Source: an uncultured Gammaproteobacteria bacterium
GTDB taxonomy: Bacteria; Pseudomonadota; Gammaproteobacteria; JACCXJ01
Direction of reading: 5' to 3'
Assembly: GCA_963764725.1 (NCBI GenBank)
Contig: CAVXTM010000016.1
Coordinates: forward strand, 32,001 to 96,000
DNA length: 64,000 nt
This document shows, piece by piece, positions 43,736 to 63,803 of this stretch. Below the pieces are notes generated by a model. That model was not told where the DNA came from. It did not search any database and saw only the letters and a program-made list of their open reading frames with translations. Numbering within the stretch: the stretch's first letter is position 1; each line of letters starts with the position of its first letter. Both the position numbers and the translations under genes were made by a program.

Positions 43736-44425
43736 CTAAAAGCCGACATTGATTTTAGCAGCAAGCCCCCGGATCCGGTCCGACTCGTACACGTGGACCC
43801 CGCGGGTGGCGTCCTTGGCAATCCGGATCATCGCCGCGGCGACCGCCCGCGCCGCGATCGGCCGGTACTTACCAAGCGGGCCGACGAACATGAATCCGAG
43901 TGCCCGTCCCGCGAGGATCGCGAGCCGCTCTCCGGGACGGCGCTCCCGGCGGTCACCGAGGAGCAGCGAGGGCCGGAAGATGTGTACGCCATCGAACGGC
44001 AGCTTCCGAACCGCATCCTCCACCTCGCCCTTCACCCGGCTATAGAAGACCCTCGATTGGGGATCCGCACCCAGTGCGCTCACTAAGAGGAACTGGCTGG
44101 CGCGGTGACGGGAGGCGAGCTGCGCGAGCTCTTGGACATAGGTGAAGTCCACCCTGCGGAACGCCGCCTCTGAGCCCGCGTGCTTCATGGTGGTGCCCAG
44201 ACAGCAGAAGACGTCGTCGACCCTCGGGACGTCATCGAGCTCCGCTAGCCGGTCGAAGTCGACCATCCGCTGCACCAACTTGCGGTGCGTGGTTCCGATC
44301 TCCCGCCGGCCCAGCACCGCGACCTGCTCCCAGGCGTCGCCTTGGAGCAGCAGCTCCAGGCAGTGACCGCCCACGAGCCCGGTCGCGCCGGCAAGGAGCG
44401 CGGTGCGCCTGCCCGGTGTGACCAT
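43736..44425 (-). CDS. NAD(P)-binding oxidoreductase, YraR/HTATIP2-like
   Basis: GATGLVG, FCCLGTT..HAGS, VSALGAD, FY.RVKG, RPSLLLG. Confidence 0.9.
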   Translation of the reverse strand: MVTPGRRTALLAGATGLVGGHCLELLLQGDAWEQVAVLGRREIGTTHRKLVQRMVDFDRLAELDDVPRVDDVFCCLGTTMKHAGSEAAFRRVDFTYVQELAQLASRHRASQFLLVSALGADPQSRVFYSRVKGEVEDAVRKLPFDGVHIFRPSLLLGDRRERRPGERLAILAGRALGFMFVGPLGKYRPIAARAVAAAMIRIAKDATRGVHVYESDRIRGLAAKINVGF

Positions 44426-48037: not shown

Positions 48038-48229
48038 CCGGCGGTCACCGAGGAGCAGCGAGGGCCGGAAGATGTGTACGCCATCGAAGGGCGGCTTCCG
48101 AACCGCGTTCTCCATTTCACCTTTCACCCGGCGGTAGGAGACCCTCGATTGGCGATCCGCACCCAGTGCGCTCACCATGAGGAACTGGCCGGCGCGGTGC
48201 CGGGAGAGGCGAGCTGCGCGGGCTCCTGG
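48038..48229 (-). repeat. Diverged ~190-bp partial duplicate of the YraR-like gene (43946-44135)
   Basis: Near-identical DNA; peptide VSALGAD.QSRV.Y.RVKGE.E.AVRK.PFDGVHIFRPSLLLGDRR. Confidence 0.88.
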
Positions 48230-50501: not shown

Positions 50502-51410
50502 GGCTCATCGTGAAAGTGAGTGGGTAGAAAATGATGTTTTCACAGCACCGGCAGCATGCAGGTAAGCACCTTAAGGCGCAGGTAATGCTGGTCGCGGAGT
50601 CCGTAGGCGCGGCGCTGGATGACGCGGATCTTGTTGTTGAGTCCTTCGACGAATCCGAGAGAGATCTTGTTCTCTGGTTTGCAATAAGCAGCGATCCCAT
50701 CCCAATGGCGCTCGATCATCTCGGCGAATTTCTCGTACGGTTTCAGGCGCTGCCATTTAAGCGCGTTGCGCCAGTTTTCGAAGAAACGTCGCGCCCAGGC
50801 TTCGCGCTCGTAGCACCACAACTGGCCGAAGGATTCCTTGAGCAGATAAGCGGTATTCAATCGCTTGTTGGCGGCGAGGAGCCTTTTCAGGGCGGCTCGA
50901 CCATCGAGGGTCAGATGCTCCCGCCGGGAGAGCAGCGTATACCTTTGACCCTTGATGTAGCTCCGTTTCTCGCCGCTGAGCCGGGCATACTCCTCCTTGC
51001 GGATCTTATCGAGCGCCTCACCCAGGTGACGCATCACGTGAAATTTATCGAACAGGATAGCCGCCTGGGGTGCTTGTTCTCTGGTACTGTTGCGAAACGG
51101 CTTCCACATGTCCATCACGGCCAAGCGTACCCCCTTGGTTTTACGTGGCCCCAGCCAGGTGAAGAATTCGTCCATGCTGGCCTCCGAGCGACCGGTTCCG
51201 CCGAACCAAATGGGTCGGCCACGGAGGAGATCGCTGACCACGATGCGATAGGTGTGACCCTTGCGGATGGCGATCTCATCGATGCCGATAACCGCAGGTC
51301 CTGGCCGGCCAGCCCGTGCAAGCTGCGCACCCATGTATTGCTTGTCCAACTCCTTGACCGTCTGCCAGTCGAGATCCAACTCATCGGCCACCGCTTTGAT
51401 GGTGCTCGTG
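50502..51410 (-). mobile_element. ISL3-family element, 3' part (5' truncated)
   Basis: IGIDE, MDMWKP, FDKFHV, VEGLNNKI..I.RRAYG; end sequence GGCTCATCGTGAAAGTGAGTGGG. Confidence 0.9.
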
Positions 51411-51753
51411 CGCCAGCTCGCGCTCAGTTGCGGGACGGTGGAGTTGCAGCGGCCGCGGGTACGGGGGGAGGAGGAGCGCTTTGAGAGTCGGCTCTTACCC
51501 TTGTTTGTTCGCCGGACGGAGGGCGTTGCGGAGTTGCTTCCCACCTTATATCTGCACGGGCTGTCGATGGGGGATTTTGAGCTAGCGCTCCGTGGGCTGC
51601 TCGGGGACGGGGCGCCGCTCTCGGGGAGTTCGATTGCGCGGCTGAAGACGAAATGGCAGGGAGAATATGCGGTTTGGAGTCAACGCTCTCTCGCGGAGTT
51701 GGAGGTCGTCTATCTGGGTCGACGGGGTGTATGTAAAAGCCGGATTGGAGAAG
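51411..51753 (+). mobile_element. IS256-family transposase, N-terminal fragment
   Basis: G.VELQRPRVR...FES.LLP...LYLHGLS.GDF..AL..LLG...VDGVYVKAGLEK, cut by the IS3 end at 51754. Confidence 0.85.
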
Positions 51754-51822: not shown

Positions 51823-52091
51823 ATGGAGAAACTTAAGCGGCGGCAGTTTACCGCCGAGTTCAAGATAGAAGCGGTGAAGCTGGTGCTCGAGCAGGGCTAC
51901 AGCTATGCCGAGGCAGGCAAACGATTGGGGGTTCTGGCGAAGTTGATAAAGGCGTGGGCAAAGAAATATCGGGGGGGGGGTGAATTGGTTGCCGGTGCGC
52001 CGCGCTTGCGGGTGACACCGGAGCAGCAGGAGCTCAGCCGGTTGCGCCAGGAGGTGCAACGATTGCGGATGGAACGTGACATTCTAAAAAA
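51823..52091 (+). pseudogene. IS3 OrfA interrupted at its frameshift site by IS110
   Basis: RRQFTAEFKIEAVKLV...LRMERDILK, then IS110. Confidence 0.88.
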
Positions 52092-52149
52092 CCTTCTAAG
52101 GGGCGTGCCCACTACCTGTAGGAGTAGAAACTCCGGTGATTTTATACTG

Positions 52150-52300
52150 CCCCGGACGAAGGGAGCGGCCGTTGGCTTTTTGGTGGCATTGACCCCGTAA
52201 AAAAACGTGGTCCAGGGACAGTAGCGCACTTGGCAGTGGTGACACCGTTTCGGTGATCCCGGTTAGGAAAGTGATGATTGAGCGCCGTCCCGCCCTTCGA
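52150..52300 (+). ncRNA. Putative IS110 bridge RNA
   Basis: TATACT at 52143-52148; closing stem CGAAGGG/CCCTTCG; two internal-loop hairpins carrying target- and donor-matching segments. Confidence 0.7.
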
Positions 52301-52328
52301 TTCTTTTGGCAAACGGTGGAGAACGAAG

Positions 52329-53702
52329 ATGGCGCGAGCGAGAAAGCCGAAAGGCAAGCGGCAAACATTATCGGTGGTTCATCCGAAGGCGGCGGGAATT
52401 GATGTCGGCGCACAGATCCACGTGGTTGCAGTTCCGGTGGAACTGGCAGCGGAGGCGGTGCAAACATTCAAAAGTTTCACCCGCGATCTACATCGACTTG
52501 CTGGTTGGCTAGTTGATCTGGGTATCACAACGGTTGCCATGGAATCGACGGGCGTGTACTGGGTCCCCCTCTTTGAGATATTAGAGAGTCGTGGTATTGA
52601 AGTTCTCTTAGTCAATGCCCGTCACGCCAAAGCGGTCCCTGGGCGCAAGACCGATGTCAATGACGCGCAATGGTTGCAACAACTGCACGCCTGCGGTCTT
52701 TTACGCGGAAGTTTCCATCCCGAGCGGGAGGTGGCTGTTTTACGGGCCTACGTGCGACAACGCGATCGGCTTTCGGACTACGCCGCTTCCCATATTCAAC
52801 ACATGCAGAAAGCGCTGAACCAGATGAATCTGCAGCTGCAGCACGTCGTGACCGACATTACTGGTGCCACGGGGTTGACGATTATCCGTGCCATTGTCGC
52901 TGGAGAACGCGATCCTGCGGTATTGGCAAGTTACCGTGATGTACGCTGTAAGGAATCGGTTGAGGCAATCCGCGAAGCGCTCGTCGGTCACTATCTTCCC
53001 GAGCACGTCTTTGCGCTGCGCCAAGCCCTCGAGCTTTATGATTTCTACCAGCAGCAAATCGCCGCGTGTGATGTGGAGATTGAACAGGCCCTGGCCCGGC
53101 TTGGTCACGGGAGGGAATTACCGGCCACCCCCTTGCCCAAGCCCAAGCATCGAGGTCGTGCACCCAATGCACCGAGATTTGATATTCGCATGGCTCTTTA
53201 TACGGTGGTTGGTACCGACGTGACCCAAATCCACGGGATGGGCCCGCACCTCGCGTTGAAACTCCTGGGAGAATGCGGAACGGACATGTCACGTTGGCTC
53301 AGTGCGAAGCACTTCACCTCCTGGCTAGCGTTGGCGCCCGGGAACAAAATCTCCGGCGGGAAATTATTATCGTCCAGAACGCGTCCCTCATCGAGTCGCG
53401 CTGCGGCGCTCTTACGCCTGGCCGCGACCACCCTTGCCAGAAGCGATACGGCTCTGGGCGCCTTTTACCGCCGCCTTGGCGCGCGGGTGGGTAAAGCCAA
53501 AGCTGTCACCGCCACCGCGCGCAAGCTCGCAGTCTTGTTCTACAATGCCCTGCGCTACGGCCTTGATTACGTTGACCCGGGCGCATCGTACTACGAAGAG
53601 CGCTATCGTCAACGTACGCTCTCGAACCTTCGTCAACGCGCGCGAGCTTTGGGCTTTGAACTCTTACCGCGCACGGAGGAGGCCGTGGCGGGAGTTTCTT
53701 AG
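52329..53702 (+). CDS. IS110 DEDD recombinase/transposase
   Basis: GIDVG, MESTGVYW, KTDVND, C-terminal NKISGG serine motif, ATARKLA. Confidence 0.95.
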   Translation: MARARKPKGKRQTLSVVHPKAAGIDVGAQIHVVAVPVELAAEAVQTFKSFTRDLHRLAGWLVDLGITTVAMESTGVYWVPLFEILESRGIEVLLVNARHAKAVPGRKTDVNDAQWLQQLHACGLLRGSFHPEREVAVLRAYVRQRDRLSDYAASHIQHMQKALNQMNLQLQHVVTDITGATGLTIIRAIVAGERDPAVLASYRDVRCKESVEAIREALVGHYLPEHVFALRQALELYDFYQQQIAACDVEIEQALARLGHGRELPATPLPKPKHRGRAPNAPRFDIRMALYTVVGTDVTQIHGMGPHLALKLLGECGTDMSRWLSAKHFTSWLALAPGNKISGGKLLSSRTRPSSSRAAALLRLAATTLARSDTALGAFYRRLGARVGKAKAVTATARKLAVLFYNALRYGLDYVDPGASYYEERYRQRTLSNLRQRARALGFELLPRTEEAVAGVS

Positions 53703-53742
53703 TCCCTTATCCATGAAATCTTGTGCAAAAAAGCAAAGAGTG

Positions 53743-54836
53743 TCATGCATGAGCGGTATTGAGAGCAGGCATGACCACATACTCTCGGATAGCGAGTGCG
53801 CTGCTGAGCACACGACGACCGAATGTCGTGAGGTAGTACTTGTAGCGATGTCCAATCTTTTTGATGAGGCCATGGGTGCGCAAGCGTTTCAACCAGTAGG
53901 AGGCACGGCCGGTGGAGAGATCCCGGAGATGGGCTCGGAGATCGGAGGCGCGAAAGCCGCTGATGTTCCACTCCCCGCGGGCGAGGGTGATAAAAAGGCT
54001 ATGATCTTCACCGAGGAAGAGATTGAAGCCCCGATAGGAGCGGTCTTTCTCTCGTACAGGTTTGGCCATTTTGTCGATGGCGTGCAGAGCTGCATTGGGG
54101 TTATCGATGCTGGCCATGAAGCTGAGATAGCGTTCATTGGCAGCATGCATCAGCTCTCGCAGATCGGGGAGGCTATAGATGTTTTTTCGCAGGGGTGCGA
54201 GTTTGAATTGCTTGCGCCCATTGCGTTGTTCCACCCAACGGTGGTGTTTGAAGAAGGAGACATCGTTGGCGGTGCATTCCACCCGAGCCATGAGACTGAA
54301 TTTATCGTAGAGCTTGAGGCTTGCTGGTCCCATATGATGGCGGATGCGTGTACCCTGAATGCGGGTGTGAAAATCGTTACCGGCCTCCCCGCTGAAGGCC
54401 GAGGTAAGTTTGCGTCCCAAGAAGGTGGCGACGTGTTCTGCCTTGAGGGCATGCACGGCGGTACGCACGATGGCTTGATAGAGGGGTTGGAAATCGGCTT
54501 GGCGGTGGAAGATGACATCGGTCGAGAAAGCCAGGGCCAGGGAGTGGCCCTGCTTGGCGCGCCGAGGATGCAACTCCACCTGCATGCAGCTCCAGTGATA
54601 ACCAGCGCGAAACTGACCCAAGATAGGACAGAAGCTTTTCGCCCATCGGTCCAAACGCCGATGCAAGCCTTTGGGATCGAGGCTATCGGCAAGCGCCTGA
54701 GCCTGTTGGGGATCGCCGATGGACAAGAAGGCATTATCGGCGCGCTCAAAGGCGATCCCTGTCTTGGTCAGTCGTTGGGCTAACCAGTGATGGCCGTTCA
54801 AATAGACCTGCAGGCGAAACGGTGCCCAGGTGGGTA
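53743..54836 (-). mobile_element. 5'-truncated unclassified transposase-like gene with a C-terminal winged helix
   Basis: VPTWAPFRLQVYLNGH.WLA, DNAF, STDVIF, LKLYDK, RVECT.ND, LKRLR.HGLIKK...YKYYLT; putative terminal sequence GTCCCTTATCCATGAAATC at 53702. Confidence 0.6.
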
Positions 54837-55690
54837 CTCTGCGACTCGATTATCCGATGAGGCTATTGTGCCGTGTGATGGGGGTTTCGGCCAGTGGCTA
54901 TTATGCGAGGCTTTGCCGTCCGCCCTCGAAGCGATCGAGGGAGGAGGTGCGCTTGAAGGTCGCGATCGGTGCAGCCCATGAACGCACCCGTGGCACCTAT
55001 GGTGCGGAGCGTTTGCAAAAAGAGCTACAAGCCGAAGGTATTCAGGCGGGGGTGGGGCGGATCAAACGCCTTCGCAAGCAGCTTGGGCTATGTTGCAAAC
55101 AACGGCGTAAGTTCAAAGCCACAACCCATTCCAACCATCGGCTGGCGGTTGCAGAGAACCTCCTCGATCAGAATTTTGCAGCGACTCGGCCTAACCAGAT
55201 CTGGGTCGCCGACATCAGCTATGTGCCGACCGATGAGGGCTGGTTATACCTCGCTGCCCTCAAGGACCTCTACACCTGCGAGATCGTCGGCAGAGCGCTC
55301 TCGGAACGCATGAGCAAGGAGCTCGTGGGCCGGGCGCTGATCCAGGCGGTCGCAGCCAAACGCCCAGCGGCAGGGCTGATTCATCATTCTGATCGAGGCA
55401 GTCAATACTGCTCGCATGACTACCGGAAACTCCTCGAGCAATTTGGCATGAAAGCTTCCATGAGCCGCAAAGGCAACTGCTACGACAATGCCCCGGTGGA
55501 GAGTTTCTTCGCCTCGTTAAAAACCGAGCTCGTTTATCATCGGCGCTACCAGACGCGTCGCCAGGCCGTGGCCGAAATCACCGAGTATATCGACCTTTTT
55601 TACAATCGCCAGCGGCGGCATTCGAGACTCGGGTATCTCTCGCCCATGGCTTTCATTATAAAATACTGGGAGAAACGACAGGCAGCTTAA
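54837..55690 (+). pseudogene. IS3 OrfB (DDE), separated from its orfA
   Basis: WVADISY, HHSDRGSQY, DNAPVESFF, YNRQRRHS. Confidence 0.9.
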
Positions 55691-55724
55691 AAGTTATGGC
55701 GTCCACTATTGACAACCGACCTCA

Positions 55725-59872: not shown

Positions 59873-60814
59873 TGAGGTCGGTTGTCAATAGTGGACGCCA
59901 TAACTTTTAAGCTGCCTGTCGTTTCTCCCAGTATTTTATAATGAAAGCCATGGGCGAGAGATACCCGAGTCTCGAATGCCGCCGCTGGCGATTGTAAAAA
60001 AGGTCGATATACTCGGTGATTTCGGCCACGGCCTGGCGACGCGTCTGGTAGCGCCGATGATAAACGAGCTCGGTCTTTAACGTGGCGAAGAAACTCTCCA
60101 CCGGGGCATTGTCGTAGCAGTTGCCTTTGCGGCTCATGGAGGCTTTCATGCCAAATTGCTCGAGGAGTTTCCGGTAGTCATGCGAGCAGTATTGACTGCC
60201 TCGATCAGAATGATGAATCAGCCCTGCCGCTGGGCGTTTGGCTGCGACCGCCTGGATCAGCGCCCGGCCCACGAGCTCCTTGCTCATGCGTTCCGAGAGC
60301 GCTCTGCCGACGATCTCGCAGGTGTAGAGGTCCTTGAGGGCAGCGAGGTATAACCAGCCCTCATCGGTCGGCACATAGCTGATGTCGGCGACCCAGATCT
60401 GGTTAGGCCGAGTCGCTGCAAAATTCTGATCGAGGAGGTTCTCTGCAACCGCCAGCCGATGGTTGGAATGGGTTGTGGCTTTGAACTTACGCCGTTGTTT
60501 GCAACATAGCCCAAGCTGCTTGCGAAGGCGTTTGATCCGCCCCACCCCCGCCTGAATACCTTCGGCTTGTAGCTCTTTTTGCAAACGCTCCGCACCATAG
60601 GTGCCACGGGTGCGTTCATGGGCTGCACCGATCGCGACCTTCAAGCGCACCTCCTCCCTCGATCGCTTCGAGGGCGGACGGCAAAGCCTCGCATAATAGC
60701 CACTGGCCGAAACCCCCATCACACGGCACAATAGCCTCATCGGATAATCGAGTCGCAGAGACCTCATCAACGCGTACCTCGTAGCGACTCCTTGGCAAAG
60801 TACGCGGTGGCTTC

Positions 60815-62188
60815 CTAAGAAACTCCCGCCACGGCCTCCTCCGTGCGCGGTAAGAGTTCAAAGCCCAAAGCTCGCGCGCGTTGACGAAGGTTCGAGAGCG
60901 TACGTTGACGATAGCGCTCTTCGTAGTACGATGCGCCCGGGTCAACGTAATCAAGGCCGTAGCGCAGGGCATTGTAGAACAAGACTGCGAGCTTGCGCGC
61001 GGTGGCGGTGACAGCTTTGGCTTTACCCACCCGCGCGCCAAGGCGGCGGTAAAAGGCGCCCAGAGCCGTATCGCTTCTGGCAAGGGTGGTCGCGGCCAGG
61101 CGTAAGAGCGCCGCAGCGCGACTCGATGAGGGACGCGTTCTGGACGATAATAATTTCCCGCCGGAGATTTTGTTCCCGGGCGCCAACGCTAGCCAGGAGG
61201 TGAAGTGCTTCGCACTGAGCCAACGTGACATGTCCGTTCCGCATTCTCCCAGGAGTTTCAACGCGAGGTGCGGGCCCATCCCGTGGATTTGGGTCACGTC
61301 GGTACCAACCACCGTATAAAGAGCCATGCGAATATCAAATCTCGGTGCATTGGGTGCACGACCTCGATGCTTGGGCTTGGGCAAGGGGGTGGCCGGTAAT
61401 TCCCTCCCGTGACCAAGCCGGGCCAGGGCCTGTTCAATCTCCACATCACACGCGGCGATTTGCTGCTGGTAGAAATCATAAAGCTCGAGGGCTTGGCGCA
61501 GCGCAAAGACGTGCTCGGGAAGATAGTGACCGACGAGCGCTTCGCGGATTGCCTCAACCGATTCCTTACAGCGTACATCACGGTAACTTGCCAATACCGC
61601 AGGATCGCGTTCTCCAGCGACAATGGCACGGATAATCGTCAACCCCGTGGCACCAGTAATGTCGGTCACGACGTGCTGCAGCTGCAGATTCATCTGGTTC
61701 AGCGCTTTCTGCATGTGTTGAATATGGGAAGCGGCGTAGTCCGAAAGCCGATCGCGTTGTCGCACGTAGGCCCGTAAAACAGCCACCTCCCGCTCGGGAT
61801 GGAAACTTCCGCGTAAAAGACCGCAGGCGTGCAGTTGTTGCAACCATTGCGCGTCATTGACATCGGTCTTGCGCCCAGGGACCGCTTTGGCGTGACGGGC
61901 ATTGACTAAGAGAACTTCAATACCACGACTCTCTAATATCTCAAAGAGGGGGACCCAGTACACGCCCGTCGATTCCATGGCAACCGTTGTGATACCCAGA
62001 TCAACTAGCCAACCAGCAAGTCGATGTAGATCGCGGGTGAAACTTTTGAATGTTTGCACCGCCTCCGCTGCCAGTTCCACCGGAACTGCAACCACGTGGA
62101 TCTGTGCGCCGACATCAATTCCCGCCGCCTTCGGATGAACCACCGATAATGTTTGCCGCTTGCCTTTCGGCTTTCTCGCTCGCGCCAT
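60815..62188 (-). CDS. IS110 DEDD recombinase/transposase, copy 2
   Basis: Translation identical to 52329-53702. Confidence 0.95.
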   Translation of the reverse strand: MARARKPKGKRQTLSVVHPKAAGIDVGAQIHVVAVPVELAAEAVQTFKSFTRDLHRLAGWLVDLGITTVAMESTGVYWVPLFEILESRGIEVLLVNARHAKAVPGRKTDVNDAQWLQQLHACGLLRGSFHPEREVAVLRAYVRQRDRLSDYAASHIQHMQKALNQMNLQLQHVVTDITGATGLTIIRAIVAGERDPAVLASYRDVRCKESVEAIREALVGHYLPEHVFALRQALELYDFYQQQIAACDVEIEQALARLGHGRELPATPLPKPKHRGRAPNAPRFDIRMALYTVVGTDVTQIHGMGPHLALKLLGECGTDMSRWLSAKHFTSWLALAPGNKISGGKLLSSRTRPSSSRAAALLRLAATTLARSDTALGAFYRRLGARVGKAKAVTATARKLAVLFYNALRYGLDYVDPGASYYEERYRQRTLSNLRQRARALGFELLPRTEEAVAGVS

Positions 62189-62216
62189 CTTCGTTCTCCA
62201 CCGTTTGCCAAAAGAA

Positions 62217-62367
62217 TCGAAGGGCGGGACGGCGCTCAATCATCACTTTCCTAACCGGGATCACCGAAACGGTGTCACCACTGCCAAGTGCGCTACTGTC
62301 CCTGGACCACGTTTTTTTACGGGGTCAATGCCACCAAAAAGCCAACGGCCGCTCCCTTCGTCCGGGG
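62217..62367 (-). ncRNA. Putative IS110 bridge RNA, copy 2
   Basis: Inverted copy of 52150-52300. Confidence 0.7.
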
Positions 62368-62756
62368 CAGTATAAAATCACCGGAGTTTCTACTCCTACA
62401 GGTAGTGGGCACGCCCCTTAGAAGGTTTTTTAGAATGTCACGTTCCATCTGCAATCGTTCCGCAACTCCCGCTGCAACCGGGTGAGCTCTGCTTCTACCG
62501 CCGTCACCGGCAAGCGGTTCGACCCCACCTCTCAAGTTTCCCCCCCGAGTTCTTTGCCCACGCCGTTCACTAAGGTCTTCGCTGACATCGATAACCAATC
62601 GATGCCGCCTCGGTAGCTTTTAACCTCTCCTCCACAACCAGCTTCACCGCATTCTCACGAAACTCTTTCGTGTAAACCTGCTTCGGTAACTTATTCATTG
62701 AACACCTCCTTCTCCTATACCCTATCGAAGGCGTCCATTTTTTTCATCCTACCTCA

Positions 62757-62972: not shown

Positions 62973-63803
62973 GGTTTCAGGCGCTGCCATTTAAGCGCGT
63001 TGCGCCAGTTTTCGAAGAAACGTCGCGCCCAGGCTTCGCGCTCGTAGCACCACAACTGGCCGAAGGATTCCTTGAGCAGATAAGCGGTATTCAATCGCTT
63101 GTTGGCGGCGAGGAGCCTTTTCAGGGCGGCTCGACCATCGAGGGTCAGATGCTCCCGCCGGGAGAGCAGCGTATACCTTTGACCCTTGATGTAGCTCCGT
63201 TTCTCGCCGCTGAGCCGGGCATACTCCTGCTTGCGGATCTTATCGAGCGCCTCACCCAGGTGACGCATCACGTGAAATTTATCGAACAGGATAGCCGCCT
63301 GGGGTGCTTGTTCTCTGGTACTGTTGCGAAACGGCTTCCACATGTCCATCACGGCCAAGCGTACCCCCTTGGTTTTACGTGGCCCCAGCCAGGTGAAGAA
63401 TTCGTCCATGCTGGCCTCCGAGCGACCGGTTCCGCCGAACCAAATGGGTCGGCCACGGAGGAGATCGCTGACCACGATGCGATAGGTGTGACCCTTGCGG
63501 ATGGCGATCTCATCGATGCCGATAACCGCAGGTCCTGGCCGGCCAGCCCGTGCAAGCTGCGCACCCATGTATTGCTTGTCCAACTCCTTGACCGTCTGCC
63601 AGTCGAGATCCAACTCATCGGCCACCGCTTTGATGGTGCTCGTGCGGCAGCGCCGCCCGACGTAGAAAGCAAAGCGCTTGGTGTAGAAAGGGTTGTCGGC
63701 CAGAAAGTCCAGACGCTCGCGCTTCACCTTGCCGCACTGCCGGCAATCCACACGCCGGACCTCCAACTCCAGCCGCACGTGCGTATCCCCGCAGGAGAGA
63801 TCT
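62973..63803 (-). mobile_element. ISL3 internal fragment (same element as 50502-51410)
   Basis: DLSCGD, RRVDCRQCG zinc finger, IGIDE; about 660 bp near-identical to the first copy. Confidence 0.9.

Follow-up and report, generated by a model that had tools for sequence, protein, structure and literature searches.

IS621, as described in PMC11208160 and PMC11208158, is an insertion sequence (IS) of the IS110 family with a recombinase of the DEDD plus serine type, a long left end that lies upstream of the gene and encodes the guide RNA, and a 2-nucleotide (nt) core that is present at both junctions with nothing else duplicated. ISEc21 and ISMch6, whose guides are known as seekRNAs (PMC11187229), are described as having an upstream non-coding region and, as natural target, a stretch of conserved coding sequence inside IS3-family transposase genes; for ISEc21 this target is given as the codons for the second D in DDE. 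We report here an IS110-family element that resembles IS621 in the former three respects and ISEc21 and ISMch6 in the latter two. It occurs in two copies in a stretch of 64,000 nucleotides from an uncultured Gammaproteobacteria bacterium (assembly GCA_963764725.1, contig CAVXTM010000016.1, positions 32,001 to 96,000 of the forward strand; called the window below, and the source of all coordinates), each inserted at a run of A's in an IS3 gene. We consider it very probable that this is a bridge-RNA-guided IS of the IS110 group whose guide RNA is set for the poly-A recoding site of other ISs.

The two copies are 100% identical and form inverted arms of 1,645 nt (52058-53702 and 60815-62459). Copy 1 occupies 52092-53702 on the plus strand; copy 2, which is complete, occupies 60814-62425 on the minus strand, with its copy of the AA core at 60812-60813 and a run of six A's (A6) at 62426-62431. 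Both directly follow GACATTCTAAAAAA of an IS3 orfA (two matches in the window; two matches in 0 of 100 shuffles), in agreement with the initial annotation, made from the sequence alone, which had both copies starting after the same orfA sequence. The C that follows the A6 run, at 52092, is the first base of the element, and not 52081 as initially annotated. Copy 2 ends with TTTCTTAGG, then AAGCCACC: beyond the right end come AA and GCCACC..., the remainder of the IS3. The right end of copy 1 lacks its final G and the AA core, that G and about 55 nt of the IS3 having been replaced by a foreign piece of 1.1 kb (53703-54836). A minus-strand open reading frame (ORF) of 352 amino acids in this piece matched no Pfam or NCBIfam family.

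The host of copy 1 begins with an orfA (51823-52091, plus strand; Pfam HTH_Tnp_1, E = 1.1e-16) that includes the A6 run at 52086-52091, and its ORF (51823-52200) extends into the left end of the IS110 element and stops there. Part of the corresponding orfB lies 3' of copy 1 (54837-55724, plus strand; Pfam rve; NCBIfam IS3, 345 bits), and the same 888 nt, at 100% identity, are found 3' of copy 2 (59873-60760), within an IS3 3' part that comprises GCCACC..., the orfA C-terminus and orfB (59873-60811, minus strand). A helix-turn-helix (HTH) orfA and an rve orfB, the latter shifted to the -1 frame at a slippery heptamer rich in A's, are the make-up of an IS3. Upstream of copy 2 lies a degenerate orfA of a second IS3 type (62432-62700, minus strand), which has frame breaks and shares about 73% identity with its counterpart at copy 1. 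Past 23 nt, the identity between the left flanks of the two copies drops to this level.

What did the site look like before insertion? We found no intact copy of the window's IS3 in the source genome. Metagenome contigs from two runs (X1 and X3), placed on copy 2, follow the orfB side through 60813, continue with five further T's and then pass into orfA-like sequence. They represent the uninterrupted IS3, which reads T-A7-GCCACC on the element's strand, and their depth is 102 in X1 and 8.5 in X3; contigs that carry the IS110 element have depths of 7.2, 6.9 and 4.1. The A7 empty site that had been deduced from the window is thereby seen directly, and A7 restores orfA to ...KKATAYFAKES followed by a stop, with orfB in the -1 frame, just as had been inferred. 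A related IS3 (contig C11) has A6G in place of A7. The locus was hardly covered by the raw reads of X21 (two reads placed), and two joints in X1 (61012/61191 and 61211/61683) were dismissed as other organisms or repeats, their sides being 21 letters long only.

The element has the layout of the IS110 group: a long left end 5' of the gene, holding the putative guide RNA, and a right end that is short. The left end measures 237 nt (52092-52328), is non-coding and precedes the recombinase gene (52329-53702, plus strand), for which ATG 52329 is the most likely start (457 amino acids); the stop codon lies 2 nt inside the right end. That the gene encodes an RNA-guided recombinase of the IS110 family, as first annotated, is borne out by Pfam (DEDD_Tnp_IS110, PF01548, E = 2.5e-20; Transposase_20, PF02371, E = 2.8e-11) and by NCBIfam NF033542 ('IS110 family RNA-guided transposase'; 240.6 bits, cut-off 140). 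The DEDD and serine residues (D25, E72, D109, D112 and S342) are invariant across 25 recombinase homologues. A profile of these homologues matches the IS621 recombinase structure 8wt6 (E = 9.8e-9), and the catalytic residues align with GID, E(A/S)TG, KTD..D and ESG of the IS621 chain. A phmmer search of the recombinase against the PDB gave no match, 8wt6 being reached by the profile search only, and the protein is thus a distant relative of the IS621 recombinase. The whole genome holds two copies of the element, both in the window, and no close copy was found in 14 other genomes of the family, including the unpublished G008, G011 and G012.

We then turn to the wider clade, for which one genome per species was scanned, metagenomes not included. 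The scan gave 571 confirmed relatives, of which 80 were kept; these represent 79 distinct loci, with recombinases 60-70% identical. Recombinase relatives at 60-76% identity number in the thousands. Host genes were classified by tblastn, the queries being window sequences and loci to which Pfam or NCBIfam had given a name. The A-run lies between the HTH and rve ORFs of IS3-type genes at 39 of the 79 loci and between the HTH and DDE_3 ORFs of IS630-type genes at a further 8, and every classified insertion is co-oriented with its host gene. The IS3 slippery site, given as the target in the initial annotation, thus holds for the window and for those 39 loci, but the class was drawn too narrowly, as the IS630 loci show. 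At the latter we found HTH_33 upstream (L079) and DDE_3 downstream (L040; NCBIfam IS630, 128 bits, cut-off 100), with the catalytic ORF in the -1 frame at the A-run. Frameshifting is used, according to PMC5009743, in IS1, IS3, IS5 and IS630, and the same source describes transcriptional realignment in a Roseiflexus IS630.

Over the clade, 54 distinct left flanks were compiled. Each of them closes with four or more A's, exactly six in 37 cases, and 50 of the 54 have an A at position -6. Among 66 distinct right flanks, 63-65 start with AA, followed by A or G (57 of 66), then G (38) and C (39). The right end itself is GTTTCTTAGG in 71 of the 79 loci. Three plasmid copies, in Aeromonas, on Dinoroseobacter pDSHI01 and on a Citrobacter plasmid, have the same left junction. 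The clade is present in 219 plasmid records, including 60 from Citrobacter, 18 from Enterobacter and 7 from Klebsiella; it is one and the same relative, 65% identical, that is found on the plasmids of these three genera. One plasmid copy of this relative (L103) follows ...DILK-A6 of an IS3 and has an IS66 directly after its right end. In genome G015, four near-identical IS630 copies (L079, L085, L086 and L095) all carry the IS110 element at A8-GTGG, and this composite may have been copied by the host transposase in trans. At one copy of the IS630 whose A8 run carries the IS110 element in this genome (L113, on C2 at about 1249549), unrelated sequence begins right after the A6 of the run; it may be another element that uses the same A-run site.

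Where exactly does recombination take place within the A-run? Among 25 IS3 loci examined, 22 have readable frames, and 20 of these need a duplication of 2 nt (the exceptions are L050 and L052; three loci were unreadable). Genome G015 allows a direct comparison for one IS630, with A8 at empty sites (L105, L106 and L110) and A7 and A3 on the two sides of the IS at occupied ones (L104, L109 and L112). This gain of two A's, together with the frames of the 20 IS3 loci, identifies the recombination core as AA within the homopolymer, although the count of A's is not fully stable. Six loci have a tandem junction of right end and left end, with AA (L060, L083), AAA (L041, L077, L099) or AAAA (L075) between the two; such loci represent either tandem copies or an insertion into a junction that was already there. 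Among the metagenome reads placed on the window element, we saw no joint of right end and left end such as a circle would have. The 2-nt core at both junctions and the scarless empty site typical of IS110 are both found, with copy 2 of the window and the Dinoroseobacter plasmid copy (L102) off by one A: each has 6+2 A's, where the AA-core duplication usual in the clade predicts 6+3. The missing A may have been lost by slippage, either during recombination or afterwards, or may be an error of the assembly.

We aligned 49 distinct homologous left ends, from the TAYACT box to the ribosome-binding site. The terminal part of the left end (52092-52142, plus strand) holds a variable hairpin and the conserved AGAAAC (52127-52132), an inverted repeat of GTTTCT in the right end; a search for a fixed motif at the start of the left end failed because the first 35 nt or so, which form the hairpin, vary. 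The conserved, -10-like TAYACT box follows (52143-52148, plus strand), and then a fold resembling a bridge RNA (52157-52299, plus strand), with helices P1 (52157-63/52293-99), P2 (52167-71/52208-12), P4 (52215-19/52287-91), P5 (52224-28/52281-85) and P6 (52238-46/52252-60). Six helices were drawn on the window sequence and scored on the alignment. Pairing is seen in 83.6% of 1,535 cells against 75.4% in shuffles, both sides change in 21 of 33 pairs, none of 500 shuffles reaches any of the five fold measures, and slid controls peak at zero. Helices 2, 4 and 6 are 94-99.6% paired, and in helix 1, the closing stem CGAAGGG/CCCTTCG, all seven pairs have changes on both sides. Single-sequence folding of the left end did no better than shuffles (z = 0.12), so that only the comparative fold is informative; no Rfam family matches the left end. 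From this covariation, the left end (about 52150-52300) is predicted to encode a conserved RNA with two bridge-like loops and a common closing stem. The stem and three loop segments that had been picked out by eye in the window are all conserved or covarying in the 49 left ends, which speaks against the worry, voiced at the time, that low-complexity matches had arisen by chance.

The two loops share one architecture: on the 3' side of each stands CCCG-N-(7 nt)-N-GUG, where the 7 nt are A7 for the first loop and UUAGGAA for the second. When the two segments are aligned, each consists of five bases plus AA, the five being those of the target in one case and those of the right end in the other. 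The candidate left target guide is U-A7 (52198-52205, plus strand), of the same sense as the target T-A7 and present as N-A6/7 in all 49 left ends. The candidate left donor guide, UUAGGAA (52263-52269, plus strand), matches TTAGG of the right end plus the AA core and is nearly invariant in the same alignment. On the 5' side of the first loop, the candidate right target guide UUGGCUUUUU (52172-52181, plus strand) is complementary to the top-strand A-run plus (A/G)GCCA. Most members have NNN-GC-UUUUU here: the G and C are complementary to bases two and three past the AA core, and the neighbouring U pairs with A or G. The segments noticed in the initial annotation are thus conserved guide positions.

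Does the right target guide vary with the target? When every column was scanned blindly against every flank position, the strongest association (z = 5.9) was that of the G52175 column with the third base past the AA core, paired in 84% of cases where 64% are expected. Permuting the flanks among 50 element-flank pairs gave p ~0.0002, and p ~0.024 for the 26 pairs with a flank other than (A/G)GC, both permutations ignoring the relatedness of the elements. The covariation between loop and target that was to be expected of a guide is therefore observed on this side. Guide and flank change in step, as in AAAAGU with ACTT, ACGAU with TCGT and CCAACU with AGTTG. The left target guide (A6/7) matches its target but hardly varies. 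In the window, UUGGCUUUUU fits AA-(A/G)-GCCA, the in-frame IS3 sequence, with five pairs past the core, and fits the actual junction, one base short, poorly. For a second donor guide, three candidates were tried and rejected: the weakly matched GGT of the initial annotation, a G-N-UU before UUAGGAA, and a discontinuous fit of conserved positions (U and G opposite A-C1, G opposite C5), which showed no covariation.

These elements combine into the following mechanism. The U-A7 segment, matching the T-A7 half of the target, would pair with the bottom strand, and UUGGCUUUUU would pair with the top strand, from the last A's into (A/G)GCCA, while UUAGGAA in the second loop would stand for the element's own right end and the AA core. 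A circular form of the element (right end-AA-left end) would then recombine with the target at AA inside the A-run, leaving AA at both junctions. The RNA would presumably be made and used as in IS621. Long A-runs are rare in ordinary genes, but the -1 recoding sites of IS3 and IS630 transposase genes cannot do without them, which would be the reason why the clade lands there. Insertion separates the DNA-binding ORF from the catalytic ORF, and the host IS would lose its fusion transposase. We infer, moreover, that the targeting of A-runs has been selected rather than being incidental.

Several observations weigh against this mechanism. The bridge RNA is predicted from DNA sequence, and we found no full match to a sigma-70 promoter in the linear left end. 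No convincing candidate for a second donor guide, which would read the start of the left end, emerged from a comparison of the 5' side of the second loop with the core and the first 14 bases of the left end. The match of the target guide is short (3-5 nt past the A's), its statistical support is subject to the relatedness of the elements, and several copies sit at poorly fitting sites, such as the L079-type copies at A8-GTGG; the right junction in the window is one A short of the clade rule. Could the target then be chosen by the protein, or by the structure of the A-tract, and the fold have another role, for instance in controlling transposase expression? Besides the missing donor guide and the nature of the evidence for the RNA, it could be argued that the left guide and the donor guide are invariant and therefore cannot show covariation. 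Such a choice is nevertheless very improbable, since the right guide does covary with the flank, the two alike loops carry a target half and a donor half that are in register at the AA core, and the mechanism is established in the family for IS621 and ISEc21.

The specialisation on recoding sites has to be weighed separately from the guide. The elements might simply recognise T-A6/7-R-G-C, IS3 and IS630 being multi-copy mobile carriers of this sequence, with neither a specialisation on recoding sites nor any selected consequence. The host class was left unassigned at 32 of the 79 loci, among which are short contigs, loci with tandem copies, one locus with a masked flank and another 5' of an IS21-like gene; by eye, several of the 32 look like IS3 or IS630, on top of the counts given above. 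The site 5' of the IS21-like gene (L057) lies outside any recoding site, which also counts against homing into such sites, and L097 and L100 are in unknown contexts. As the clade shows hardly any variation in its left guide and core, any long A-run may be a target. Set against this are the 47 of 79 loci that lie at the frame boundary of transposase genes, from two unrelated DDE families, and the right guide, which tracks the bases after the A-run by lineage (AGC/GGC for IS3, ACTT for one IS630 type). On balance, we find recognition of a simple sequence unlikely, though by no means far-fetched. For the window itself, the chances appear evenly balanced that both copies derive from one event, copied with the IS3 or by homologous recombination, in which case the source genome alone would give no independent evidence of homing. 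It has two copies only, which may not be independent events, and no intact copy of the host IS3; the IS110 copies and the 888-nt orfB flanks are without a single difference, and the region is a nest of IS fragments. The left flanks, however, diverge beyond 23 nt, which means that two different orfA genes carry the element, and a single insertion in the window would leave the clade-wide evidence for homing into the A-run untouched.

The clade could be an undescribed IS110 lineage that spans many phyla and lives as a hyperparasite on recoding sites. Its RNA would be wired for poly-A, with a left guide of A7, a core of AA and a U-run that would read both A7 and A6G by wobble. To switch between IS3 and IS630 hosts, it would change no more than the few bases of its right guide. 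The host transposase would be cut into a regulator half and a catalytic half, and the inserted element would be carried in trans by intact copies of the host. The homopolymer core would permit slips of one base, leaving frameshifted host elements after excision. We put this forward tentatively, being slightly more inclined to doubt it as a whole than to accept it.

A 300-nt direct repeat of ISL3-type transposase sequence, 100% identical (50739-51038 and 62973-63272), flanks both inverted IS3::IS110 units, and Pfam assigns DDE_Tnp_ISL3 to 50540-51544; the 13 kb between the repeats are a nest of IS pieces. A second direct repeat, of 169 nt and 91% identical, is found at 43946-44114 and 48038-48206. 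Both orfA genes contain runs of 7-9 G's (51960-51970, and 62545-62555 on the minus strand), and the second is broken in frame. The G runs and frame breaks may reflect decay or homopolymer errors of the assembly, and the possibility of such errors limits the trust that can be placed in the one-A deficit at the junction.

An IS110 element inside an IS3 is not new in kind, since ISEc21 homes into IS3 genes, and the mechanism is the known one of IS110; what we did not find in print is homing into the slippery run across IS3 and IS630. A literature search found no paper on IS110 insertion into frameshift or slippery sites, the supplements of PMC11208160 and PMC11187229, which may list such targets, lying outside that search. 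The ecological side is what we infer from the sites. If it is correct, one class of mobile element has specialised on the most constrained few bases of two others. Such a site could not mutate away without killing the host element, and the target would therefore be renewed wherever IS3 or IS630 spread, which bears on the mutual restraint among insertion sequences. The clade probably explains many of the 'split' IS3 and IS630 genes in annotations. For work on bridge recombinases, it would offer a natural system whose core is AA, whose left-end RNA has its guides in mirrored order and in which one guide accepts A or G by wobble.

Elements of the IS1111 group also home into repeats carried by mobile elements, namely attC sites and, for IS4321 and IS5075, the inverted repeats of Tn21-type transposons. 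They have subterminal inverted repeats, as does the element described here, and encode their guide RNA 3' of the gene, in the right end, whereas ours would be encoded 5' of the gene, in the left end. Compared with IS621 as described in PMC11208160 and PMC11208158, our element has AA inside a homopolymer as its core instead of CT, and a poly-A recoding site in another IS as its target instead of a repetitive extragenic palindromic (REP) sequence. Unlike IS621, to the extent that these descriptions cover it, the element has a 6-bp subterminal inverted repeat (GTTTCT/AGAAAC), a variable hairpin of about 35 nt before AGAAAC, and a common closing stem around both loops of its predicted RNA. The reversed guide order suspected at the outset is real and affects both loops: in our element the guide for the top strand is 5' and the same-sense guide 3', whereas in IS621 the left target guide (LTG, 50-58) precedes the right target guide (RTG, 77-80). 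According to PMC11187229, the seekRNAs of IS1111 have the top-strand match first and that of ISEc21 has the reverse, with the bottom-strand match 5' of the top-strand match; our element follows the IS1111 order. The element thus combines the upstream RNA of the IS110 type with the guide order that this source describes for IS1111.

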